Assembly: GCA_964511175.1 (NCBI GenBank)
Contig: CAZEEI010000005.1
Location: 3,416 to 67,415, forward strand
Direction: 5' to 3'
Length of the DNA stretch: 64,000 bases
Source of the DNA: an uncultured Pseudomonadales bacterium
GTDB lineage: Bacteria; Patescibacteriota; Microgenomatia; UBA1400; UBA1396
Shown here: positions 1,758-64,000 of the stretch, piece after piece
How positions within the stretch are numbered: position 1 is the first letter of the stretch
Layout of the letters: every line of letters begins with the position of its first letter
Notes under the pieces: generated by a model
Databases searched by the model: none
What the model was told of the DNA's origin: nothing
The model's input: only the letters and a program-made list of their open reading frames with translations
Position numbers and translations under genes: made by a program

Positions 1758-3278
1758 TTAGGGCAGGGTAAAAAATTGACTGACTAACGCTTGTCGCTGC
1801 GTTTCATTCCAACCAATCACTACATCTTGTCGCACGTAGAGGTCAGTTACCCGACCGTCGGCGCGATATAAATGGTAATACTGCTTCGTCAGGAGCGGCG
1901 CCAGCGATTGGTAATAGAAACTGCTGGGTTCGGTTTGGAAGTAAACAAAAGCAGGCGGTGCAGCCAACAAAGCCTGCCAGTCGGCCTGAAGTTTGGGTAC
2001 ATTCCAAGCCCAGTTGAGGTGAAACACCTGCTGGTCGGACGTTGGCAGGCTGGTCAGGATGTGCAAATACCCGTCGCCGTCTGGACCGGTCAGAAGAGTA
2101 TCGCCAGGATTCTTCACTAGGTTAAGCGCGTTGGCAATAGCTTGATAAGTCCCGTACTGGATTGCATTTTCGGCTAACCGATTTTTCCGTTCGGCCACCC
2201 AAACTAAATTACCAGTCAGCAAACCTAGCCATATTAGCAGTAATACCCCACGCGCTATTCGGCTGGGCCAGCGCCGCCAGACCGTGGTGGTAGCTACGGC
2301 CAATACTGCTGCCAAGGCTGCCAAATAGGGCCAGAGGTGAAAACCCTGGTAGAACCGAATATTAAAGTGGTCACTGCGGGTGTTTAGTAGCCAAAGACCA
2401 ATCAAAGCCAACCACCACGGCCAGCGTTTTTTACTTTGCCAAATCACCAAACTAACTAGCACAATCGCTGCCGCAAAAAGACGACCTATTGGCTCGCTAA
2501 GTGCCGCTGCTTGAATAAACGGATAAAACAATACGGCCCATCGGTTACCTGGCGTTGCCGCGGGAATGACGTAACGTACTGAAGTTAAAACCGTTTTCTC
2601 CCACCAAGCCGCTGGTGAAATCAGGCCAAACAAAGCGAGGGTCGGCAATAAACCGGCTAGCACTAATAACTTTTTTTGCGGCCAAGGCAGACGCCAAAGG
2701 AACCAGCCAGTCGCCAAGCCAACCAGTGGCCAGAGAGGTAAAAGGTTGAAAAAAGCCCCAAACAAGGCGATTGCCAAAGCAATTACATCAGGAACGGCTA
2801 AACGGTAGTAGGAATCTTGGGCTAAAGCGAAGTAGTAAAGCACAATCGCCGCCACCGCCGGCGCGGCCAAAGATTCACCCAACACATACCAGCCAAAAAA
2901 CCAGTGGGACAACGCCAGCAGCAGCGCACTAGTCAGCAAGCCGCGCCAACGGAAACGAGCCACCAGCCAGGCCGAGCTCACTGCTAAATACACCAGCATC
3001 ACCCAACGAATACGTTCGATTAGTAAGAAAAGCGAATTGTAGGGTAGTAGTTTAGTTAAAATCGCCCCAGCCAGCACCGGCAGAGGTTGGTGCGTTAAGG
3101 AAAGGTCGGTGTACAACCGGCGGCCGGACGACCACATCAGCCAACCCATCGTTAAGTGGTCGGTTTCATCCTGAAAATACCAGGATTGGGAGTGGGAGCG
3201 TAGTCCCCAACCAACCACTACCAACAAAATAAAGAAAATCGGCCAAATCAACCAAGATCGACGGGCAATTAATTTCAT
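1758..3278 (-). CDS. polytopic membrane protein, glycosyltransferase family 39/83-like (ArnT/PMT-type) candidate
   Basis: About 505 aa with more than 10 predicted TM helices (Trp/Leu/Ala-rich) and a C-terminal soluble domain. The supplied ORF starts at TTG 3287; ATG at 3278 gives MKLIARRSW. Confidence 0.5.
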   Translation of the reverse strand: MKLIARRSWLIWPIFFILLVVVGWGLRSHSQSWYFQDETDHLTMGWLMWSSGRRLYTDLSLTHQPLPVLAGAILTKLLPYNSLFLLIERIRWVMLVYLAVSSAWLVARFRWRGLLTSALLLALSHWFFGWYVLGESLAAPAVAAIVLYYFALAQDSYYRLAVPDVIALAIALFGAFFNLLPLWPLVGLATGWFLWRLPWPQKKLLVLAGLLPTLALFGLISPAAWWEKTVLTSVRYVIPAATPGNRWAVLFYPFIQAAALSEPIGRLFAAAIVLVSLVIWQSKKRWPWWLALIGLWLLNTRSDHFNIRFYQGFHLWPYLAALAAVLAVATTTVWRRWPSRIARGVLLLIWLGLLTGNLVWVAERKNRLAENAIQYGTYQAIANALNLVKNPGDTLLTGPDGDGYLHILTSLPTSDQQVFHLNWAWNVPKLQADWQALLAAPPAFVYFQTEPSSFYYQSLAPLLTKQYYHLYRADGRVTDLYVRQDVVIGWNETQRQALVSQFFTLP

Positions 3279-3362
3279 TATAACCAAGCGTACTGCCAGA
3301 TCTATGTTTAATCAATCGTGCTGACTGCCACACCGTATGCTTCCGTTTTAACTCGACTACTC

Positions 3363-5405: not shown

Positions 5406-6923
5406 CTACCTATTTGTCGCTGACTCAATTAACTGTTCCAGCAGGGTAATGGCCTCTTCAATATGTGTGGGCTCAGTGCGTGGATGCATTAATACGGCGC
5501 GGTAAGTCCATTGTTGTCTTTCAGCGGGTGACAAAGCATCAACTGACTCATCTACACTTAAGTTGGTGGCGGAAAAGAAATATCCCGACTGATCACGCAG
5601 TTGTTGTCTGGTTAACTCGATGATTGGCTCCAGTTGAGAATTATGGGTTATACCATGCCTGCGACAATACTCGGGTCGGATGGTGAAACAAACCACGTTG
5701 AGATGCGGCTTGTGCAGAGGCTGAAGTATCGGAGAGGCTAAGAGCCGTCGATAAAGGTACCCTGTATTATTCAGAGTGTGGTCTAAAAGTGCTTGCCACT
5801 CTTGTTTAGAAAAAGCATTGATGGCAGCCACGGTGGCTAAAACACAACCCGCCCCCGCCGATCCTTCAATTCTTTTCTGTCCAAGACTAACTTGTCCTGG
5901 CTTGAAAACATAAGCAGCATCATCCGAATCAAATTTTATTTTAGCGTGTTCATGAGGATCACGAAAAACGACTGCCCCAGCCTCATATGGCGTGTTTAAC
6001 GTTTTATGTGGATCCAGTGTAACCGAATTGGCTCTTTGAATACCCTTAAACAAATGTTTTTGGGTAGACATTAGATACGCAAATCCATAGGCGGCGTCTA
6101 CGTGGAGATAAATGTGATATTTCTTAGCGATATCCGCAATAGCATTAAGAGGGTCAACAATACCAGTTTCCGTTTCGCCAGCAATTGCGACAATTGCCAT
6201 AATTTTTTTGCCGCTGTCCGTAATTTCGCGGATCATCGCTTCTAGACCAGCCGGATCCATTTGGAGATTACGACTAGGAGCCTTAAGAACTGAGATTGAT
6301 CCATTGGGTCCGGCCAGAATGCGTACTGCTTTAGTGATGGAGTAATGGATAAACGGATTAGCAATAACGACGAACTCATTATTAGGACGTTCAGTGGTTG
6401 TTAGTCTTTCACGCTCAGCTTTTTCGGAGGCTAACTCACGGGCGACCCAAAGAGCGGTAAGGTTGGCCAGCGAGCCGCCGGAGGTAAAAGTCCCGCTGGC
6501 GCTCTTTTTGTCAAAACCAACTAACTCAGCCAACCAACCAATAGCCTCCGGTTCTAAGGCTGACTCTACTTCCGAAACTTCCCGGGCAACCGTATTAGAT
6601 CCAGACCGAATAGCCAGAATATATGCCAGCATCGCCGGAATTGAAGCCTCCGTCAACATATGACCAAGATAAAACTTATCAAAACGCTGCGCCTTTTTAA
6701 GGTGTTCAAAAATACGTTGAATAGCCTGCATCGCTTGGGGATTTTTTCTACTTACAAAACCCCGATCTCCATCCGCCATGTTTTGCAGAAGAATATAGAA
6801 TTGTTCGAGCTCGGCATCGTGATTTTCAGGGTCAAAAAAAGCAGCTCGCGCTGCCTCTAAATCAGATTGGTTAACCCTAAATTTAAACTCAGGATTTTGT
6901 TTTCGCGATCCTCGCTTATTCAT
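5406..6923 (-). CDS. pyridoxal-phosphate-dependent group II amino-acid decarboxylase (fold type I)
   Basis: HVDAAYGFAYL...SVTLDPHKTLNTPYEAGAVVFRD carries the S-x-HK PLP-lysine motif of GAD/TyrDC/MfnA-type decarboxylases. The supplied ORF starts at TTG 6983; ATG at 6923 (MNKRGSRKQ..., GGTGA upstream) is preferred. Confidence 0.8.
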   Translation of the reverse strand: MNKRGSRKQNPEFKFRVNQSDLEAARAAFFDPENHDAELEQFYILLQNMADGDRGFVSRKNPQAMQAIQRIFEHLKKAQRFDKFYLGHMLTEASIPAMLAYILAIRSGSNTVAREVSEVESALEPEAIGWLAELVGFDKKSASGTFTSGGSLANLTALWVARELASEKAERERLTTTERPNNEFVVIANPFIHYSITKAVRILAGPNGSISVLKAPSRNLQMDPAGLEAMIREITDSGKKIMAIVAIAGETETGIVDPLNAIADIAKKYHIYLHVDAAYGFAYLMSTQKHLFKGIQRANSVTLDPHKTLNTPYEAGAVVFRDPHEHAKIKFDSDDAAYVFKPGQVSLGQKRIEGSAGAGCVLATVAAINAFSKQEWQALLDHTLNNTGYLYRRLLASPILQPLHKPHLNVVCFTIRPEYCRRHGITHNSQLEPIIELTRQQLRDQSGYFFSATNLSVDESVDALSPAERQQWTYRAVLMHPRTEPTHIEEAITLLEQLIESATNR

Positions 6924-39679: not shown

Positions 39680-40441
39680 ATGTCGGCATTGCGCATAGTT
39701 GAGTTAACTGCCTCGATTAATAACCAGGAAATTTTGCACGGCCTGTCTTTAACGGTTAAACCGGGTGAAATTCACGCAGTCATGGGTCCAAATGGTGCCG
39801 GCAAGTCAACTTTAGCAGCTACTTTGGCCGGCCATCCAGCTTACCAAGTGGGCGCCACTTCACGTTTACAACTAGATCGCCACAATCTCGTGACGCTTAC
39901 GCCCGACGAACGGGCGCGGTTGGGTTTATTCCTGGCTTTCCAATATCCTACTGAAATTCCAGGTGTTTCGGTCCAAAACTTTTTGCGAGCCATGTGGGAG
40001 GCGCGGTTTGGACCACTGGGACCACAAAACCGCTATCCTTCCGTGTTAGCTTTGCGCCAATATTTAACCCAGCTGGCCCAAGAACTTTCGATCAAACCAG
40101 AATTGCTGCGACGCAACCTGAATGAGGGTTTTTCTGGTGGCGAAAGGAAGCGTCTAGAGATTTTGCAGATGGCAGTTTTTGAACCTAGGTACGCTATTTT
40201 GGATGAAACGGATTCTGGGCTGGATATCGATGCTATTAAAATTGTGGCTCAGGGAGCGCAGACTATTGTGAACCGCTTCCATACTGGCATTATTATAATT
40301 ACTCACTACCAACGTATCCTCCAATTTTTGCGGCCAGATTTTGTCCACGTTTTGGCGGGCGGCAAAATTGTGACCAGCGGTGGTGTCGAGTTAGCTGATA
40401 AACTAGAAAAGGAAGGGTACGCCCAATATCAAAACTTATGA
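39680..40441 (+). CDS. sufC: Fe-S cluster assembly ATPase SufC
   Basis: GPNGAGKSTL Walker A, ABC signature FSGGERKR, Walker B ILDETDSGLD. The supplied ORF starts at TTG 39650; ATG 39680 is used. Confidence 0.85.
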   Translation: MSALRIVELTASINNQEILHGLSLTVKPGEIHAVMGPNGAGKSTLAATLAGHPAYQVGATSRLQLDRHNLVTLTPDERARLGLFLAFQYPTEIPGVSVQNFLRAMWEARFGPLGPQNRYPSVLALRQYLTQLAQELSIKPELLRRNLNEGFSGGERKRLEILQMAVFEPRYAILDETDSGLDIDAIKIVAQGAQTIVNRFHTGIIIITHYQRILQFLRPDFVHVLAGGKIVTSGGVELADKLEKEGYAQYQNL

Positions 40442-40929
40442 ATGAATCAGTCCGTCAACCACAACAATTAACTCCTAACGTCAAACTGCTCCAAAAAATA
40501 GCCTTGGTTAGCCAGGGCAAAGTTCTCCTGTTACGCCGCGATGCGGCTTCGTTCTCCCGCCCCGGCGCTTGGGATTTACCAGGCGGCAACTCTGAATGGC
40601 CCGCCACCACTGAGCCAACGGTCAATCTGCACCAAATTGATGCTGCCAGGGAAGTAGAAGAAGAAACCGGGATTGGCCTCACACCCGACCAGTTTGCGTT
40701 GGCAAATTTAATTCATCTAGAAACCCATTTTGACCCAGAGCGACAAATCTTCACGGTTTTACTGGGTTGGCGAATAGTTTTACCTGACTCTTTTGGTCTT
40801 GAGTCGATTCGTCTTAGTCAGGAGCACACTGATTACCTTTGGAGCAAACTGGACGAAGCCAGTTTAATGGACTTTGGTGGAAATAAAGGCCAATTTATGC
40901 AACGTATTTTACAGGAAGCAGCCGCTTAA
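40438..40929 (+). CDS. NUDIX hydrolase
   Basis: Nudix box GG...REVEEETGI; the start overlaps the sufC stop (ATGA). Confidence 0.7.
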   Translation: MNESVRQPQQLTPNVKLLQKIALVSQGKVLLLRRDAASFSRPGAWDLPGGNSEWPATTEPTVNLHQIDAAREVEEETGIGLTPDQFALANLIHLETHFDPERQIFTVLLGWRIVLPDSFGLESIRLSQEHTDYLWSKLDEASLMDFGGNKGQFMQRILQEAAA

Positions 40930-40980
40930 AAATTCTTGTTTTGCGCCGTTTGGTAACTATCTCATCAGGATGTTCTGTTT

Positions 40981-41000
40981 ATTTGTACATATGTACAAAT
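40981..41000. promoter_or_regulatory. 20-bp perfect palindrome ATTTGTACATATGTACAAAT (candidate operator), copy 1
   Basis: Exact self-complementary 20-mer; identical to 60798-60817. With flanks the match extends to a 24-mer GTTTATTTGTACATATGTACAAAT plus a shared GAACA at +6..+10. Overlaps the putative promoter and start of the downstream two-gene cassette. Confidence 0.6.
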
Positions 41001-41281
41001 TCTCTGAACACGATAAAAAGGCACTCTATCTGCGTCGTGGTCTAGAAACCAGAATCATCTCAGCAGGTGAATTTAGGCAAGATATGTTTATTTTACACCG
41101 CCAATTTTTGCACCCTCACACCGAGCAACAATATCTCATTGTTGTGCGTAATATGAAGGAAGGACATGACATGTTTCTCGTTACTCCTCTAGATCCGCTT
41201 GGCCGTTTTGAAGTACAAGAGTATATGAATTATGTTCAATCCGAATTAACCTATTACCGACAAAAGGGGTTGTTACCATGA
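40991..41281 (+). CDS. small hypothetical protein, putative antitoxin-like partner of the downstream PIN-like gene
   Basis: First ATG lies at the palindrome centre (leaderless?); alternative ATG 41084. The stop overlaps the next start (ATGA at 41278). The supplied ORF starts at TTG 40874. Confidence 0.35.
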   Translation: MYKFSEHDKKALYLRRGLETRIISAGEFRQDMFILHRQFLHPHTEQQYLIVVRNMKEGHDMFLVTPLDPLGRFEVQEYMNYVQSELTYYRQKGLLP

Positions 41282-41658
41282 CTGGCGGTCTTCTCGTAGA
41301 CGAAGTTGCCTTTCTTTATCTGGCACAACAGCGAAATAGGGCCTACCGCAACTTGCTGCGCGAAAGCTTTCAGAATAATGCCGCTTTATACCTTCTGCCG
41401 GAAGTGGTTTTATACCTCTACCAACACCAAAATTTAAACTTGCCTCTCAGTGTTTTTGAACCGTTTCGGTTGCTAACCCCAGAAACAGCCGTATTGGTCG
41501 GAGCTTGCCGCTGGGCCGTCAAAAAACAACTGCCACTACACCGAGCCTTAATTATTTATGCGGCCCACTTCTATCGCACTAGGGTAGCAATTATCGATTA
41601 CCACCTTTATGGTGGTTTGGGTCTGCCACACCACTATCGGCATTACATTAGCGGGTAG
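41278..41658 (+). CDS. PIN-domain-like (VapC-like) protein candidate
   Basis: 126 aa with an acidic residue pattern compatible with PIN: D8 (LLVDEVAF), E42 (LLPEVV), D107 (AIIDYH). Translationally coupled to the upstream small ORF. Confidence 0.4.
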   Translation: MTGGLLVDEVAFLYLAQQRNRAYRNLLRESFQNNAALYLLPEVVLYLYQHQNLNLPLSVFEPFRLLTPETAVLVGACRWAVKKQLPLHRALIIYAAHFYRTRVAIIDYHLYGGLGLPHHYRHYISG

Positions 41659-41674
41659 CAGGTACAATACACCC

Positions 41675-43105
41675 ATGGCGCGCTTTGCCCCTATCCACAG
41701 TCAGACTCCAGTCAACAATTTGACTGATCAGCCATATGAACATGGTTATTCTTTTAGTACCGCCGATTATGCCCTTATTACGGAACCGGGAATCAACCAA
41801 CGCATTGTGGAATTAATTAGCCACCATAAGAATGAACCGGATTGGATGCGTCGGCTTCGCCTGGATGCCTTACACCAATTCTTGGCTAAACCTTTGCCGA
41901 CTTGGGGAGCCGATTTGTCGGGCATTAATTTTGATACCCTTCACTACTATCTTCGGCCGCTCAGTCAAGCGGCTAAAACTTGGGCGGAAGTACCGGCGGA
42001 CATCAAAACCACTTTCGAACGGATTGGCGTACCGAAAGCTGAACGGGAATACTTAGCCGGGGTCAAAATGCAGTACGACAGCGAGGTGGTGTATGGTTCG
42101 CTGAAAAAACAGTGGGAACAAGACGGCGTTATTTTCCTGTCTATGGACGAAGGACTAGCGCAATATCCCGACTTGGTGCGGGAGTATTTTGGCAGAATTA
42201 TTCCAGCCGGCGATAACAAATTTGCCGCTCTCAACACCGCCGTTTGGAGCGGCGGATCATTCGTTTACGTGCCGCCTGGCGTAGAAGTAAAAATGCCTCT
42301 CCAAACCTACTTTCGCATTAATGCCCGTAGTGCCGGCCAGTTTGAGCGTACTTTGGTTATTGTCGACGAGGGCGCCAAAGTTCACTACCAAGAAGGCTGC
42401 ACTGCTCCTTCTTTTACGGAAAGCTCTCTGCACGCAGCGGTCGTGGAGATTATTGTAAAAAAGGGTGCTCGCTGCCAGTACACCACCGTCCAAAATTGGT
42501 ACAAAAATGTTTACAACCTAGTGACCAAGCGAGCCAAAGTGGCGGCGGAGGGGACTATGGTCTGGACCGACTTCAACCTGGGCTCAAAAGTAACGATGAA
42601 ATATCCTGGGTTTATCTTGGCCGGCGCCGGTGCAACCGGAGAAGTTTTATCCATGGCCATCGCCGGCGCCGGCCAGCACCAAGACACCGGCAGTAAGGCC
42701 ATTCATCTGGCTCCGCACACCAGTTCGACTATCGTCGCCAAATCGATTAGTAAGGATGGCGGGCGGGCGGGCTATCGTGGTCTAGTTCACGTCAGCCCGC
42801 CCGCCCACCACAGCAAAAACAAAGTCGTCTGCGACGCTCTCATTTTGGATCCGCGCAGCCGCAGCGACACCTATCCCACACAGCGCGTCTATACCAGCCA
42901 AGTACAGTTAGAGCACGAAGCCACCGTCAGCCGCATTGGTGAAGAACAGCTTTTTTACCTAATGAGCCGCGGCCTCACCGAAGAAGCGGCTGGTAAAATG
43001 ATCGTTCGGGGTTTTGCTGAACCATTGGTTAAGAAACTACCGCTCGAGTACGCAGTGGAAATGAATCGCCTCATCGACCTGGAAATGGAGGGATCCATTG
43101 GTTAA
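41675..43105 (+). CDS. sufB: Fe-S cluster assembly protein SufB
   Basis: About 477 aa with the SufB/SufD beta-helix core; alternative longer start ATG 41609. Confidence 0.85.
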   Translation: MARFAPIHSQTPVNNLTDQPYEHGYSFSTADYALITEPGINQRIVELISHHKNEPDWMRRLRLDALHQFLAKPLPTWGADLSGINFDTLHYYLRPLSQAAKTWAEVPADIKTTFERIGVPKAEREYLAGVKMQYDSEVVYGSLKKQWEQDGVIFLSMDEGLAQYPDLVREYFGRIIPAGDNKFAALNTAVWSGGSFVYVPPGVEVKMPLQTYFRINARSAGQFERTLVIVDEGAKVHYQEGCTAPSFTESSLHAAVVEIIVKKGARCQYTTVQNWYKNVYNLVTKRAKVAAEGTMVWTDFNLGSKVTMKYPGFILAGAGATGEVLSMAIAGAGQHQDTGSKAIHLAPHTSSTIVAKSISKDGGRAGYRGLVHVSPPAHHSKNKVVCDALILDPRSRSDTYPTQRVYTSQVQLEHEATVSRIGEEQLFYLMSRGLTEEAAGKMIVRGFAEPLVKKLPLEYAVEMNRLIDLEMEGSIG

Positions 43106-53654: not shown

Positions 53655-55430
53655 TTAACTAGCCGCAGCACTGGGTGGTTGGTGTTCCGCACTAATGTTG
53701 TAGCGGGACAGCACTTGTTGGACGCCAGGCAGAATCGTCTCTAAAGCCTGTTGCGCGTTACCGGTGCGCACCGTCTCATTTACTGCATCGGTGTAGTACT
53801 GGATTAGTTGGTCATCCAAACCTTCGTCATGGGTGTACGACGCCATAAACCAGGAGTCGGCATACAACGCATCTTCTAAATAAGGCGCAATGAGTTTATT
53901 ACTGCTCAGTTCCGCAGCCATATCAACCCGTGGATAAAGCTCGCCGAAACCGCGCACGGAAGCGGCCTGGGTTTGGAAGCGACGCAACTGCTCCGGCTGA
54001 CTAAGCCAGGCCAGAAAACGCCAGGCTTCCGCGGTATTCTTAGAGGCCTTACTAACCCCTTCCACCCAGTAGCTGGACCAGGCTAAACGCTGTCCACCCA
54101 ACTGCGGCAAAGCGGTAACCCCAAACTGTAAATTTGGATTCAAGCGCTGAATTTCAAAAATACGCCAGGAAGGAGCCAAAATCATGGCTACCTGTTCGTT
54201 GGCAAAAGCTACCGTGGAGTTGGGCATGGTTTCGTCCCAAACTTTATCCGAACGGCTGAAGATGGTATAGAACTCCAGGGCGTGCCGGGCATTTTCACTA
54301 ACCGGATTACCCGGTTGAGCCGAATTCTGGAGGAGCATTAGAGCCAGAATGTCGGAAAAAGAATCAACGTTGCTGGTTGTCCCCAAGGCAATACCACCGC
54401 GTTCCAGGCGATCGTTGTTGCGAACGGCTAATTGGGAAGCCAAGGTGCGCACTTGCTCCCAATCCTTAGGAGGTTGGGCGTTGGCCGTGGTCAGCATGGA
54501 TTGGTTGTAGAGCAGCGCCAGACCTTCGTACATTAGCGGCACACCCAGTACGTCAGTGCCACCGGCCAGTTCTTTAGCCATGATTGGATAATAATTTTGG
54601 CGCAGTTCGGCTAAACTAACGGTGTCGGTGGTGGCGGGCGCCAGATCGGTAGATAACATCGGCAGCCAAGTATTGTGGTAACGGAAAATATCTGGACCCG
54701 AACCATCACGGATGGCGGCTTGCAGCCGCTGGCGGTATTGTTCGCTTTTTTGTTGAACGTAAGTTATTTTGATATTGGCGTGGTCTTTTTGGTACGCCTC
54801 GATTAAAGCGTTCATCACCTCCGGCGGTTCCCATAGTCCCCAGTAAGTAAGGGTCACGTTACGACTGGCGGGAGTGGTAGTTTTAACCGCTACTTCCGGC
54901 TCGCTGGGTCGCAAAAACAGATAGCCGCCAATCATGATAAGTAGCATTAGCAATCCGCCCACCGCCGCCATAATTAAATTACGCCGCCGGGTAAAGAAGG
55001 AGGGCAGTTTAGCGGCAGCTGCCGCGACTGGTTGACCAGCCGGCGGTTTACCACTGGGAGGCAAACCAAAACCAGCTGTCTCCTGCGGAACACCACCTAC
55101 TGAAGTGGGAGACGGGATTTTTGGCGCCGCAACTGAGGCTGGCGGCATACCTGGTAAACCAGTGACTGGCGGCGGCGTAGGTTGAACCGCGGCAGCAGTC
55201 TGGAAGGGAGCCGGGTTAACCGATTGCAAATTCTGGAGGAAACGACTAGAAATTGGCGGCGGCTGTACAGGCTGTACACTAGCTACAGGAGTTACTGGTG
55301 CCGGCGTCACTGATAGGGGAGGCGCTACCGGCGGTGCTACCGGCCTCACCGGAGTTGGCACCATCCCAGGGGATACCGGGGTCAAAACCGGCCGGGAAGG
55401 CGGAATGAGCGGATTAGTGGTGTCAGCCAT
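53655..55430 (-). CDS. ABC-type extracellular solute-binding protein (family 1, MalE-like) with Pro-rich N-terminal repeat region and TM anchor
   Basis: VTLTYWGLWEPPEV...GPDIFRYHNTWLPML SBP_bac_1-like. The N-terminal 90 aa are PxxP-rich, followed by a TM helix. Confidence 0.7.
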   Translation of the reverse strand: MADTTNPLIPPSRPVLTPVSPGMVPTPVRPVAPPVAPPLSVTPAPVTPVASVQPVQPPPISSRFLQNLQSVNPAPFQTAAAVQPTPPPVTGLPGMPPASVAAPKIPSPTSVGGVPQETAGFGLPPSGKPPAGQPVAAAAAKLPSFFTRRRNLIMAAVGGLLMLLIMIGGYLFLRPSEPEVAVKTTTPASRNVTLTYWGLWEPPEVMNALIEAYQKDHANIKITYVQQKSEQYRQRLQAAIRDGSGPDIFRYHNTWLPMLSTDLAPATTDTVSLAELRQNYYPIMAKELAGGTDVLGVPLMYEGLALLYNQSMLTTANAQPPKDWEQVRTLASQLAVRNNDRLERGGIALGTTSNVDSFSDILALMLLQNSAQPGNPVSENARHALEFYTIFSRSDKVWDETMPNSTVAFANEQVAMILAPSWRIFEIQRLNPNLQFGVTALPQLGGQRLAWSSYWVEGVSKASKNTAEAWRFLAWLSQPEQLRRFQTQAASVRGFGELYPRVDMAAELSSNKLIAPYLEDALYADSWFMASYTHDEGLDDQLIQYYTDAVNETVRTGNAQQALETILPGVQQVLSRYNISAEHQPPSAAAS

Positions 55431-58309: not shown

Positions 58310-58699
58310 ATGTCTGATAAAGAAAAAAAGGAAAAAGGTCGCCCCTTTTTATCTCTTAGTGTTAAGGAAAGTGTTTTGCTCCTTGATCCTCTAGGTAATG
58401 ATCTTCTTCAACTTACCGATTACGAAGTATATGGACGGTTGCTGCCGGAAACAATTGATTTCCTTAACCAAAAACGCCAACTTTATATTCGGCTCGCCCG
58501 CGCCATCAGAACAGTTAATCAGTTAACGATCGAGCAAAAACTGAGTATGGGTTTAGTCGATCTATTAACCGAAACTGAACTGGAGCGGATTACTGCGGCA
58601 ACACAGCCGGGAAAATTACAGCTAAACAACCGAAACTATGCTCTCTATGCTGAGTATTTTTTGGCACAGAAAAGAGCGGAGTACGAATCGCCGCGCTAG
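58310..58699 (+). CDS. hypothetical protein (129 aa)
   Basis: ATG with an AAGGAAAGGAAA SD. Confidence 0.5.
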   Translation: MSDKEKKEKGRPFLSLSVKESVLLLDPLGNDLLQLTDYEVYGRLLPETIDFLNQKRQLYIRLARAIRTVNQLTIEQKLSMGLVDLLTETELERITAATQPGKLQLNNRNYALYAEYFLAQKRAEYESPR

Positions 58700-58701
58700 T
58701 T

Positions 58702-60462
58702 TTATTTGACCGTAACGCTTTTGGCCAAATTCCGCGGCCGATCAGGATTATTGCCCCGTAAAATGGCCAGGTGGTAGGCCAGCAGCTGGCTGAAGAGCGC
58801 GGCGGCGGCGAGTTGAGCCAAAGGTTCTTCCGGCAAGATAATGGATCGGTCAAATACCGCATCCGATTGGGTTGCGATCCCCACGAGCCAGCCGCCGCGC
58901 GCTTTTAACTCCAGCGCCGTGGTTATCGTTTCCGTCTGCTGTTGAGCCGAACCAAATAACAAGCACGGCACTCCCGCCTCAATTAAGGCCAAAGTTCCGT
59001 GTTTTAACTCACCGGCTGCCATCGCTTCTGCGTGCAAATAACTAATCTCTTTAATCTTCAGAGCTGCTTCTAAGGCGATCGGTAAAAATGAACCACGCCC
59101 TAACAAAAAAAGATTAGGTTGATTGGTCAGTTCTTTGGCTAATTGTTCGATTTTACCCAGCCAAATTTGATCCCGTAGTAAGCTGTCCAATACCTCTGCT
59201 GCTGCTTCAACCGAACACTTTCCTGCGGAGAAGTGGCCGCTAATCATCTGGGATAACCAAAAAAGCAGAGCCATTTTAGCCATGAAGGCTTTAGTCGAAG
59301 CCACCGCTTTTTCCCGACCGGCCGCTAATTGTAATTTAAGGTCGGCCATCCGGTCTAAGGTTGACCAGGGGGAGTTGGTAATAGCGATCACCTTGGCGCC
59401 GCGCGCCTGCCACTGGATCAACGGCTCAACCACATCAATAGTTTCACCACTCTGAGAAAGTACAACTACTACTGTTCCCTCGGCGATGAAACGTGTGAAA
59501 GAAGACGCCTCACTCGCTAAAATCGTACGGGAAGCAATGCCTTGGGCTGCTAAAAATTGTTCACCAAGTAGAGCGGCGTGCCAGGCTGTTCCGCAAGCTA
59601 GGAAGTAAATTGCCGGTGCTTTGACTAGGCGATCAACTACCGGTTGCAGTTCTGTCTCAGCGCGCTGACTCAGACGATGAAGTACTGTCGGTTGTTGGTT
59701 AATTTCGCGCAACATTTGGTGGGGGAAACGACCATCATCTTGATCAATCGTATCGGCCGATATTTGACGCCATACCGGCATTATCACTTCTCCCGATTCT
59801 TGGTAAAACCAAGCTTGCTCGGCCGATAATTGAGCCAACTGGCCATCGGCTAGAAATAAGACTTGGTTAGTCAAACTGGCCAGCGCGGCGCCGTCAGAAG
59901 CCACTGCGTAACCATCGGCCAAACGACCTACGGCTAAAGGGGAACCGCGTCGCCCTAAAAATAGGCGCCGCGCGCGCAAGGCCAGCAGTACCACCGCATT
60001 CAAACCGGTCAACCGTGACCACGTCTGTTGCCAGGCTTGCCAAACATCCCCACACTGCTGGTAGTTGGCCACCATTAAGTGAACAATCACTTCGGAGTCG
60101 GTTTCGGAACGGAAACTGTATCCCTGATTTTGCAATTCCTCACGCAGCAACAAAAAGTTTTCAACAATACCGTTATGAACTACGGCAAATTGGCCGTCCG
60201 CACTCAAATGCGGATGGGCGTTAGCTACGGTTACGCCGCCGTGGGTAGCCCAACGGGTATGGCCGATACCCAATTGGGTAGGTTGCCAATGCAAAGATTC
60301 CACTTTAATCGGCCCCACTTCTTTGTGTGTCTCCAACCGACCATTTTGTTCGACAGTCACGCCCCAGGAGTCATAACCCCGGTACTCCAAATCCCGCAAT
60401 CCAGCCAAGATTTCGTCAGCGGGATGTTTTTTACTGGTCACTAAACCAAAGATGCCGCACAT
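58702..60462 (-). CDS. glmS: glutamine--fructose-6-phosphate aminotransferase
   Basis: MCGIFG N-terminal nucleophile; two SIS domains; 586 aa. Confidence 0.9.
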   Translation of the reverse strand: MCGIFGLVTSKKHPADEILAGLRDLEYRGYDSWGVTVEQNGRLETHKEVGPIKVESLHWQPTQLGIGHTRWATHGGVTVANAHPHLSADGQFAVVHNGIVENFLLLREELQNQGYSFRSETDSEVIVHLMVANYQQCGDVWQAWQQTWSRLTGLNAVVLLALRARRLFLGRRGSPLAVGRLADGYAVASDGAALASLTNQVLFLADGQLAQLSAEQAWFYQESGEVIMPVWRQISADTIDQDDGRFPHQMLREINQQPTVLHRLSQRAETELQPVVDRLVKAPAIYFLACGTAWHAALLGEQFLAAQGIASRTILASEASSFTRFIAEGTVVVVLSQSGETIDVVEPLIQWQARGAKVIAITNSPWSTLDRMADLKLQLAAGREKAVASTKAFMAKMALLFWLSQMISGHFSAGKCSVEAAAEVLDSLLRDQIWLGKIEQLAKELTNQPNLFLLGRGSFLPIALEAALKIKEISYLHAEAMAAGELKHGTLALIEAGVPCLLFGSAQQQTETITTALELKARGGWLVGIATQSDAVFDRSIILPEEPLAQLAAAALFSQLLAYHLAILRGNNPDRPRNLAKSVTVK

Positions 60463-60757: not shown

Positions 60758-60797
60758 ATTATACACATTACCGACTTCTTTTTTGGCTGCTCAGTTT

Positions 60798-60817
60798 ATT
60801 TGTACATATGTACAAAT
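60798..60817. promoter_or_regulatory. 20-bp perfect palindrome ATTTGTACATATGTACAAAT (candidate operator), copy 2
   Basis: Identical to 40981-41000. It sits in the divergent region, about 30 bp upstream of the glmS leader -10 and 92 bp upstream of ORF 60909. Confidence 0.6.
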
Positions 60818-60908
60818 AAATCGAACATGCTGACGTAATAATTACGACCGATTTATATGCTAGTGAGTGTGTTAGAATAACCGAAAACTTATCGCTTGAA
60901 AGGAAAAT

Positions 60909-61289
60909 ATGGGTCGCACTCCTCATAGTAGTAGCCGTGAAAATGTAGAATCTACTCTTCAGGACAGTATGAACCTCCGGGATGCACTCTTGACTTTAGG
61001 CGCGGAGCAGCGCCTCCTTTCTATGCACCCTGTTCCTGAAGAAGCGGTGACAATGGCCATCCATCAAATTACTAGGAATAAAAATCGTTTACAGGCCATG
61101 GCCGATTTACAAATCCTTCATAACATTGCTACAAATCTCTTGCGAATGTTCGAAACCACCGAATATTTAAGTCTTTTCCCACATTATAATCGACTGTGGA
61201 ACATCATCAATGATGCTCGCGCTCTTACTCAACTAGGAGATGACTATCGCGTCGAATTGACGCGTCGTGGCGCTAAAAATCCGCGCTAA
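60909..61289 (+). CDS. small hypothetical protein (126 aa), paralog of the next gene
   Basis: ATG with an AAGGAA SD. Shares AMADLQILHNI...FPHYNRLWNII with the downstream protein's VMADLQTLQTHI...FDHYTDLWLIV. Confidence 0.5.
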   Translation: MGRTPHSSSRENVESTLQDSMNLRDALLTLGAEQRLLSMHPVPEEAVTMAIHQITRNKNRLQAMADLQILHNIATNLLRMFETTEYLSLFPHYNRLWNIINDARALTQLGDDYRVELTRRGAKNPR

Positions 61290-61355
61290 CACTTGACCAC
61301 TAGATGGTGTGTTTGTGTTAGAATGATCGACAAAGCCAAAGATTGGAGCTAAATT

Positions 61356-61685
61356 ATGGCGCGTATCCTAAATCAAGAAACTACCTTTTCGCCGGAAATT
61401 CTTGCGGGCTGGGGTATAAAACCGGAATCACTCAGTCATCCCATCACAACTGAGACTATTCAGCAAATTGTTGCGCGGATACGGCTACAACAAGACCCTG
61501 CTTGTGTTATGGCTGATTTACAAACTCTGCAGACTCATATCGAAAAGATAAAAGGTCGGTATGATGATGACGATGACGATGATGTTCGCCAAAAAATTTT
61601 TGATCACTACACCGATCTCTGGCTTATTGTTTTTGACACCATGGAAGCTTTGCAGGAAATCGAAACTCCTAATACTTTAAGATAA
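61356..61685 (+). CDS. small hypothetical protein (109 aa) with poly-Asp run, paralog of the previous gene
   Basis: ATG with a GGAG SD; DDDDDDD run. Confidence 0.5.
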   Translation: MARILNQETTFSPEILAGWGIKPESLSHPITTETIQQIVARIRLQQDPACVMADLQTLQTHIEKIKGRYDDDDDDDVRQKIFDHYTDLWLIVFDTMEALQEIETPNTLR

Positions 61686-61716
61686 GGACCAAAAACCAGC
61701 GTATACTGAGGCTGAG

Positions 61717-63057: not shown

Positions 63058-64000
63058 ATGATGAAAATCGGCACCGGCTGGCTCCAACCCTGGCGTTTTT
63101 TTGGCCTAGTGATGGCCATTTCCTTTTTTGGGCTGGTGTTAATCTACGATGTTTCAGTGGCCGAAAGTCTGCAGACTTTCGGCCACCCCTGGTATTTCGC
63201 CGCCCGCCACTTGGCTTGGATTGGCATTGGAGCAGTGGCCTTTCTCTTGGCCAGTTACGTTAAACCAGAATTATGGCAGAAAACAGCTGGGCTGGTTTTT
63301 CTGGGAGCGGTAGGACTCCTCATTGCCGTTCTTATTCCCGGCATCGGCCAGCGGGTGCAAGGCGCCCAGCGCTGGATTGTCATTGGCGGACACGTTCTCC
63401 AACCGTCTGAATTTGCCAAACTTGGCTTAGTTTTATTCTTCTCCTCTTGGTTGTCTAAACACCAGCGTTTTGTTCCCTTCCTGGTCTTTACCGGCTTACT
63501 GTTCGGTTTAATCCTCCTGCAACCTAACTTAAGCACGGCCTGTATTGTGGCTACCTTGGCCGCTACTTTGTACTTTCTGGGTGGTGGTAACCTCAAACCA
63601 CTGCTAGTATTTGGTTTGGTGGGAGTAGTGCTCTTAGCTGTTTTGATTTTGACAGTTCCGTACCGTCGACAACGCCTAACCACTTTCCTCAACCCAGCTA
63701 GTGATCCCCTGGGCAAGTCCTACCATATCCGCCAAATTACGATTGCTTTGGGCCGCGGTGGCCTCCTGGGGCAGGGGATTGGTTTATCTAAACAAAAACA
63801 GCAGTATATCCCCGAGGTTGCCAGCGATTCTATTTTTGCCATTTATGCGGAAGAGACAGGCTTTATTGGCTCAGTGGCTCTGATTGGCCTCTATGTTTGG
63901 CTGATCAATTTGGGCTATACCACGGCTAGTCAACAACCCACGCGTTTCCGCTCTTTGGTAGCCAGCGGCATTACCAGCTGGCTGACCCTGCACTTTATTT
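63058..64000 (+). CDS. ftsW: FtsW/RodA (SEDS family) peptidoglycan glycosyltransferase, partial (continues beyond window end)
   Basis: Manual translation MMKIGTGWLQPW...GAQRWIVIGGHVLQPSEFAKLGLVLFF shows the SEDS signature. Not in the ORF track because it has no stop in the window. Confidence 0.8.
   Translation, partial: MMKIGTGWLQPWRFFGLVMAISFFGLVLIYDVSVAESLQTFGHPWYFAARHLAWIGIGAVAFLLASYVKPELWQKTAGLVFLGAVGLLIAVLIPGIGQRVQGAQRWIVIGGHVLQPSEFAKLGLVLFFSSWLSKHQRFVPFLVFTGLLFGLILLQPNLSTACIVATLAATLYFLGGGNLKPLLVFGLVGVVLLAVLILTVPYRRQRLTTFLNPASDPLGKSYHIRQITIALGRGGLLGQGIGLSKQKQQYIPEVASDSIFAIYAEETGFIGSVALIGLYVWLINLGYTTASQQPTRFRSLVASGITSWLTLHFI

Follow-up and report, generated by a model that had tools for sequence, protein, structure and literature searches.

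The antitoxins YefM and Axe bind paired 5'-TGTACA-3' palindromes that overlap their own promoters (PMC1802561, PMC7730913), and in YefM-type operators the two TGTACA hexamers are spaced 12 bp from centre to centre (PMC1802561). MqsA acts at 'mqsRA-like' palindromes in the promoters of rpoS, cspD and csgD; its csgD site lies 78 bp upstream of the start and is reported to repress (PMC4894380). The stretch of DNA analyzed here, 64,000 nucleotides in total and henceforth referred to as the window, carries a palindrome with two TGTACA boxes at two places: at the 5' end of a small toxin-antitoxin-like gene pair, A1/B1 (copy 1), and in the divergent region between glmS and two small orphan genes (copy 2). 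How much the MqsA cases matter physiologically is disputed. glmS ribozymes, for their part, are found in Firmicutes, Chloroflexi and many genomes of candidate phyla (CPR, Patescibacteria).

Copy 2 is a perfect 26-bp palindrome, TTTATTTGTACATATGTACAAATAAA (60795..60820; half-sites TTTATTTGTACAT and ATGTACAAATAAA), embedded in a 40-bp inverted repeat at 60788..60827 (TGCTCAGTTTATTTGTACAT / ATGTACAAATAAATCGAACA, outer arms TGCTC / GAACA) that is 85% complementary according to an inverted-repeat search. Copy 1 likewise forms a 40-bp inverted repeat, at 40971..41010 (TGTTCTGTTTATTTGTACAT / ATGTACAAATTCTCTGAACA, arms TGTTC / GAACA, 80% complementary), in which the counterpart of the 26-mer occupies 40978..41003 and a perfect 20-bp core, ATTTGTACATATGTACAAAT, occupies 40981..41000, with the A1 start codon at its centre. 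The TGTACA boxes, at 40984 and 40992 in copy 1 and at 60801 and 60809 in copy 2, are in both cases 8 bp apart from centre to centre. The copies share 24 consecutive bases (GTTTATTTGTACATATGTACAAAT) plus the outer arms TG(T/C)TC ... GAACA; alignment limits the likeness to the symmetric unit of 40-45 bp, the flanks being unrelated. When the window was shuffled 100 times with dinucleotides preserved, two matches with at most three mismatches never occurred, whether for the 26-mer or for the 16-mer core, which rules out chance or low complexity as the source of the two copies. Relaxed patterns revealed no third or weaker copy across the 64 kb. The sequence-only reading had claimed a second copy of a symmetric, operator-like element near glmS, and this is borne out by the shared bases, both arms and the shuffles: the element is non-random, forms a perfect palindrome over 26 bp and behaves like a protein operator.

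A mobile repeat or MITE was rejected, as there are no further copies in the window and no flanking repeats, and copy 1 is orthologous in three lineages. An intrinsic terminator was rejected as well, since the terminator scan was negative at both copies, each having an AT-rich stem and no T run on either strand.

Copy 1, A1 and B1 sit between sufC and sufB. A1 (40991..41281, plus strand, 96 aa) is the antitoxin-like protein that we propose as the binder of the palindrome, and copy 1 is centred on its start codon. Its partner gene B1 (41278..41658, plus strand, 126 aa) overlaps it by 4 nt (ATGA) and encodes a protein that is at best degenerate PIN-like. A -35-like box, TTGGTA (40950..40955, plus strand), lies 41 nt ahead of the A1 ATG, and a NUDIX gene assigned by profile match (40438-40929) lies upstream of copy 1. 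An exhaustive HMMER search returned two homologues of A1, P0123 and P0124. P0123, encoded on contig L051, is 52% identical to A1. Because its alignment begins at residue 1, the A1 start is fixed at the mid-palindrome ATG. L051 is syntenic with the window (pilB ... sufC-NUDIX-A1-B1-sufB), and there too the A1 ATG is the centre of the 14-bp core TGTACATATGTACA. P0124, on contig L053, belongs to a NUDIX-A1-B1 cluster in which the full 20-mer ATTTGTACATATGTACAAAT is centred on an in-frame ATG. B1 homologues with 35-38% identity follow the A1 homologues in L051 and L053. Among 5.8 billion protein clusters, B1 retrieved only itself.

The order NUDIX-A1-B1 is kept in three lineages (window 40438-41658; L051 4966-6272; L053 3-1101), in L053 without sufB next to it, and the NUDIX protein may be a functional partner of the pair. 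sufB itself is preceded by a conserved arrangement of TACAAT, 7 nt and ATG (window 41662-41677; L051 ~6270-6290). It probably has its own leaderless-type promoter instead of belonging to one sufC-to-sufD operon, in which case A1/B1 would be a separate unit.

L051, L052 and L053 all retain copy 1 at the orthologous position, and in the three lineages represented by the window, L051/L052 and L053, whose A1 proteins are about 50% identical, the core is centred on the A1 ATG. With a fourth lineage included (L158, see below), there are five instances, and none departs from the 14-bp core TGTACATATGTACA, even in its non-coding left half, although the A1 proteins are only 34-52% identical. Each of the five spaces its TGTACA boxes by 8 bp, and the arrangement TGTACA-N6-TGTACA was absent from every locus checked. 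All three NUDIX-linked A1 loci carry TTGGT(A/T) exactly 41 nt ahead of the ATG, and L051 and L053 additionally have a TATGAT/TATGGT box 11-12 nt ahead of it; this spacing places the predicted A1 transcription start inside the palindrome.

The fourth lineage emerged from a metagenome scan with the 18-mer, which yielded at least 120 loci, mostly unrelated human-gut and Rhizobiales sites; among the matches listed, L158 (42% GC) was the only relevant locus. Its A1-like ORF starts 27 nt past the 18-mer, with the dyad centre 36 nt ahead of the ATG, and matches A1 residues 18-62 (E 2e-5; 3.7e-6 in the reciprocal search against the window). The gene directly after it encodes a PIN protein (PF01850, E 3.6e-16). 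The right TGTACA of the 20-mer is followed by 17 nt, TAGACT, 6 nt and ATG, a geometry in which the operator would overlap the predicted -35 of a leaderless promoter. The genomic context is NUDIX/suf in three lineages, whereas L158 has the site downstream of mnmA and unannotated ORFs; the site accompanies A1-type genes in organisms whose GC content is 42-60%. Given the same palindrome beside A1-type genes in four lineages and two contexts, once with a true toxin partner, an autoregulatory operator is the simplest reading, and copy 1 appears to serve A1/B1, an antitoxin-like/toxin-like pair, in this way. These comparative data tie the palindrome to A1-type genes, and with them the proposed link between copy 2 and the cassette at copy 1 is upheld.

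The binder cannot be deduced from the DNA motif alone, as the 18-mer also precedes TetR genes of Rhizobiales. A scan of a genome collection with the 18-mer gave 29 matches, none from this lineage, mostly in Bradyrhizobium/Rhizobium near TetR-family genes, plus Brevibacillus. In Bradyrhizobium/Rhizobium and similar metagenome contigs (L003, L007, L009, L013, L056, L083 and L109), TTTGTACATATGTACAAA precedes TetR-family genes by 2-30 nt, frequently with a TTGTTGAC box ahead of it, and looks like an unrelated, conserved TetR operator. A further conserved form, caatatatacaaaa-TTTGTACATATGTACAAA-aaacaataaaagta, occurs in Ruminococcus-type genomes (L010, L030) and dozens of metagenome loci, mostly human-gut contigs (e.g., L057 and L064), with no gene start within ~60 nt. 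A phage or plasmid origin was rejected, viral contigs giving only 16 single matches of the 16-mer with unrelated flanks. A scan of metagenomes with an A1 protein pattern returned nothing, and a literature search for the exact 14-mer found one irrelevant paper.

A1/B1 has the layout of a type II toxin-antitoxin system, with two small, co-oriented, overlapping genes of which A1 is first, and the same order recurs in L051, L053 and L158. The resemblance to VapBC systems extends to gene sizes, the 4-nt overlap and a palindromic site at the 5' end, and the homologous pair of L158 has a clear PIN toxin. On the other hand, B1 and its orthologues in L051 and L053 gave no Pfam PIN match and keep only part of the acidic residues, a PIN domain was not demonstrable for B1 in PDB sequence searches, and hhalign aligns B1 colinearly but weakly with the PIN protein of L158 (E 0.034, probability 1.5%). 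Nor is A1 of a known VapB type (AbrB, RHH, HTH or Phd), and A1/B1 is fixed beside the NUDIX gene in three lineages rather than mobile. The cassette at copy 1 had been described as vapBC-like from the sequence alone: a toxin-antitoxin-like character is retained, considering that an A1 homologue precedes a PIN gene in L158, whereas the failure of B1 to score as PIN makes this an analogy and not membership. We accordingly speak of a putative, toxin-antitoxin-like pair.

None of the four A1-family members belongs to a Pfam, NCBIfam or PHROG family, and a PDB profile search with A1 was negative, its best hit, the C-terminus of a bacterioferritin, being not significant (E 0.07). Aligned to E. coli YefM by hhalign, A1 matches over 14 residues (E 0.042), comprising the N-terminal RxIS..E.R motif only. 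AlphaFold models of A1 alone and with two homologues are of low confidence (pLDDT 52 and 48); their beta-alpha-beta-beta-alpha topology would be compatible with a Phd-like fold and carries no weight.

As in the YefM and Axe operators, there are two TGTACA boxes with palindromy extending past the core, and the leading gene of an overlapping pair has the site at its promoter or start (copy 1 and L158). The L158 site overlaps the predicted -35, and those of the A1 loci overlap the predicted start. Copy 1, its orthologues and the L158 site all fall within ~80 bp of the antitoxin start and over the predicted promoter. Copy 2, by contrast, has no A1-type gene alongside and no TTGGTA box or A1 promoter. 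Several features set the element apart from YefM/Axe operators: the spacing is 8 bp instead of 12 bp, within one continuous palindrome of 14-26 bp; the start codon is the dyad centre in three lineages; A1 does not score as a Phd/YefM protein; and instead of YoeB, the partner is a PIN-type protein in L158 and an unclassifiable one in the window. The match to YefM/Axe would therefore be one of mode of action, not of family.

Copy 2 lies upstream of glmS (coding sequence 58702..60462, minus strand). The long glmS leader postulated by the sequence-only reading does hold a standard glmS ribozyme (RF00234; 60510..60720, minus strand), matched over its full length from 60720 to 60510 with 60.2 bits against a gathering score of 37. 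The predicted -10 of this leader, TGTGTATAAT (60758..60767, minus strand), is the only good minus-strand -10 there, and its location matches the extended -10 boxes of relatives; the boxes lie 14-19 nt ahead of CGAAAGGAGG. On the plus strand, copy 2 is followed by A2 (60909..61289, 126 aa), the first small orphan gene, and by B2 (61356..61685, 109 aa), neither of which belongs to a Pfam family. They are paralogous as had been claimed, though weakly (25% identity, E 5e-6). A box of the extended -10 form TGnTAnAAT, TGTTAGAAT, is predicted to serve A2 (60870..60878, plus strand), and a second TGTTAGAAT box is found ahead of B2 (61316..61324, plus strand); the promoter regions, with promoter-like GTGTGTTAGAAT boxes, were duplicated along with the genes. 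The TGnTAnAAT form occurs 13 times on the plus strand of the window, mostly ahead of called genes or tRNA. A2 retrieved only itself among 5.8 billion protein clusters, the window holds no more paralogues of A2/B2, and no similarity was found between the A1/B1 and A2/B2 proteins.

With respect to these promoters, the 26-bp palindrome of copy 2 ends 27 nt from TGTGTATAAT and 31 nt from its TATAAT hexamer, in agreement with the claimed distance of ~30 bp. It also lies upstream of the small-gene pair as stated, although the gap to the ATG at 60909 is 88 nt and not 92. Taking transcription to start ~7 nt past each -10, which gives inferred positions, the palindrome would span ~-44 to -69 relative to the glmS start and ~-65 to -90 relative to the small-gene start, the 40-bp form ~-37 to -76 and -58 to -97, respectively, and the centre would be at ~-56 and ~-77. 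Copy 2 hence falls outside both predicted core promoters, adjoining the -35 region of the glmS promoter, which has no recognisable -35, and its position just upstream of that region and distal to the small-gene start argues for modulation rather than simple occlusion. As a putative orphan operator upstream of unrelated genes, copy 2 would resemble the MqsA sites, but protein family and motif are different. The right TGTACA of copy 2, a 19-nt spacer and TGACGTAAT could, speculatively, form a weak plus-strand promoter.

Between copy 2 and the small-gene promoter lies a second, unrelated palindrome, CGTAATAATTACG (60834..60846; 6-1-6; ~-39 to -51 from the small-gene start). It occurs once in the window, is flanked by the inverted sequences AAATCG / CGATTT (60818-60823 and 60849-60854), and resembles a Zur/Fur-type box.

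The closest GlmS proteins are 55% identical to that of the window and the next closest 42-46%, from Patescibacteria and Thermomicrobiales, so the organism represents a poorly sampled deep lineage. Three relatives (L031, L032 and L034) keep the neighbourhood VanW-mraY-glmS <-> murD-ftsW, with the murD ATG ~75 nt or less from the ribozyme and the murD -10, TATACT, back to back with the extended -10 of glmS. They retain glmS, the ribozyme, the -10 and divergent murD, but the palindrome and the small genes are missing from all three. In the window, the conserved murD -10 (61702..61707, plus strand) marks the right-hand edge of an insert: ~950 bp of unique DNA (60764-61701), holding both palindromes and the two small genes, separates the conserved -10s of murD and glmS. 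Copy 2 thus resides in a lineage-specific insert absent from three distant relatives, not in an ancestral glmS control region. The sole other contig available is identical. Co-regulation of glmS through the palindrome, as the sequence-only reading had it, becomes less likely, with copy 2 outside both predicted core promoters and relatives running glmS without the site. That reading had looked to close relatives for a verdict on the intergenic region; the finding that relatives keep glmS without the site counts against it only formally, as they are distant (55% GlmS identity). Given that the first gene of the insert is a small paralogue, A2/B2 form a more natural, and the likelier, target of copy 2 than glmS.

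Several further observations were made in and around these loci. The conserved murD -10 lies 9 nt ahead of the ATG, suggesting a near-leaderless murD mRNA. The glmS leaders of L031 (9560-9760) and L034 (1090-1290) align by eye with the ribozyme of the window (GACGAGC.TCTGGCCCGC..., AACGAGGAGGAGGG); the L032 leader passes the Rfam gathering score (43.9 bits) and those of L031 and L034 are below it. In L034, a locus of 7974 nt and 63% GC, all five TGTACA hexamers fall within 110 nt past glmS (3187-3297; ~1 expected), in the glmS/mraY 3' intergenic region, the first two 8 bp apart and the last three with 23-bp spacing; L034 and the A1-bearing contig L051 stem from one metagenome. A 129-aa ORF between mraY and the 3' end of glmS in the window (58310-58699) belongs to no family and has no detected homologue in the loci compared; at its position, L031 has no gene and L034 a 247-nt gap with the TGTACA cluster. 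A perfect 30-bp palindrome, GTGGCCGAAAGTCTGCAGACTTTCGGCCAC, is located ~100 nt downstream of murD (63157-63186). Finally, TGTACAGGCTGTACA (55264-55278) contains a TGTACA pair with 9-bp spacing in the 5' part of the minus-strand CDS 53655-55430 and may be due to chance.

The identity of the copies, the constancy of the core and its association with A1-type genes are observed, whereas binding by A1, the promoter positions and the regulatory outcome are inferences. The palindrome would be a protein operator specific to A1-family antitoxin-like proteins, copy 1 being autoregulatory and copy 2 a derived orphan, a reading that we hold at a probability of roughly 0.55. Copy 1 would represent the ancestral site, straddling the predicted transcription start and the A1 start codon, and copy 2 an orphan operator in the ~950-bp insert by which the back-to-back promoters of murD and glmS became separated. 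Copy 2 is most likely a binding site for an A1-type protein, and if copy 1 is bound by A1 or A1-B1, the same should hold at copy 2. An A1 dimer or A1-B1 complex would then occupy 26-40 bp at copy 2 whenever it sits on its own promoter, thereby coupling the divergent region to the state of A1/B1. Simple occlusion of a core promoter is not expected at copy 2. The effect would rather be one of modulation, through steric interference with upstream RNA polymerase contacts or, alternatively, through a block of the weak secondary promoter that may use the right-hand TGTACA as its -35.

The binder might instead be a host factor encoded outside the window, such as a TetR-, BlaI/CopY- or LexA-type dimer, that recognizes both copies and has A1 as a target. 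A1 is without a recognisable DNA-binding domain, and the identical 18-mer 2-30 nt upstream of the Bradyrhizobium/Rhizobium TetR genes illustrates that unrelated repressors can use the palindrome. Moreover, its centre, TACATATGTA, found within the window at the two copies only, fits TACAnnTGTA, the consensus of the cop box and the BlaI-MecI-CopY operator, which is bound by a winged-helix repressor; GTAC-N4-GTAC within the palindrome also resembles some LexA boxes. Yet there is no regulator-like protein, BlaI/CopY type included, among the ~40 ORFs scanned in the window, and a linkage to A1 in unrelated contexts fits a self-contained, autoregulated module rather than a host regulon, which renders an unlinked factor unlikely. 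A LexA box, an NrdR box, a dif site, an integron attC and a DasR/NagR dre site were each rejected for a mismatch in spacing, orientation or copy number.

Somewhat more doubtful is the notion that copy 2 is a functionless by-product, namely a short piece of the A1 5' end, duplicated or recombined, that came in with the 950-bp insertion or mediated it. Copy 2 does retain the first three A1 codons as a stub, ATG TAC AAA followed by a TAA stop, it resides outside both predicted core promoters in DNA absent from relatives, and with the sole other contig being identical, purifying selection would not be visible. The shared segment, however, is exactly the symmetric unit with both arms and does not extend further along the A1 coding sequence, and copy 2 is more perfectly palindromic than its parental copy (13 of 13 paired positions compared with 10 of 13). 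The right arm of copy 1 is constrained by A1 codons, a restriction from which copy 2 is free; the greater symmetry of copy 2 and the symmetric ends of the shared segment thus point to a unit set by a bound protein, not to a decaying duplication. Titration of the binder would be expected even from a neutral copy. Least probable in our view is an action of the palindrome as RNA, in which a hairpin holding the A1 start codon controls translation or processing and copy 2 is the same hairpin in RNA transcribed from the glmS/small-gene region. Each copy at an A1 start folds such that the AUG falls in the apical loop or in the stem, pairing is kept, a G-U pair included, where the outer arms differ (TGTTC/GAACA in the window, GGGTCCT/AGGGCCC in L051), and for copy 2 the minus-strand RNA gives the best fold (-19.5 kcal/mol, z -5.8), its arm mismatch becoming G-U. 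Any palindrome folds, however, and the 14-nt core is invariant where a stem could covary. L053 and L158 have no outer stem. The L158 element is upstream of the predicted -10 of a seemingly leaderless mRNA and so is probably untranscribed, and copy 2, upstream of both predicted starts and with no U run on either strand, is probably untranscribed too.

A protein operator for A1-type proteins thus remains our preferred reading. If A1 binds, its family would be a new one of antitoxin-like DNA-binding proteins, with an invariant 14-bp target, and binding to both sites would provide a natural case in which a second locus has recruited an antitoxin-type repressor, in an organism almost without recognisable transcription factors and next to a ribozyme-controlled gene. 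If true, this would bear on the contested question of whether antitoxins control genes beyond their own. Even if copy 2 is inert, the comparison yields operator, promoter architecture and start codon for a conserved orphan pair, and identifies the small genes as a recent insertion. It is conceivable, though as doubtful to us as an inert copy 2, that A1/B1 is a domesticated, toxin-antitoxin-derived chromosomal transcription factor with a small regulon, comprising its own NUDIX/suf promoter and the glmS/small-gene region, in a deep lineage near CPR/Patescibacteria and Chloroflexi; the TGTACA cluster of L034 would then be a second, independent trace. While the ribozyme itself is of the standard type, a putative protein operator upstream would be an extra layer of control, and if the domesticated-regulator reading holds, that operator would act atop the glmS ribozyme and the supply of cell-wall precursors would be tied to the state of A1/B1.
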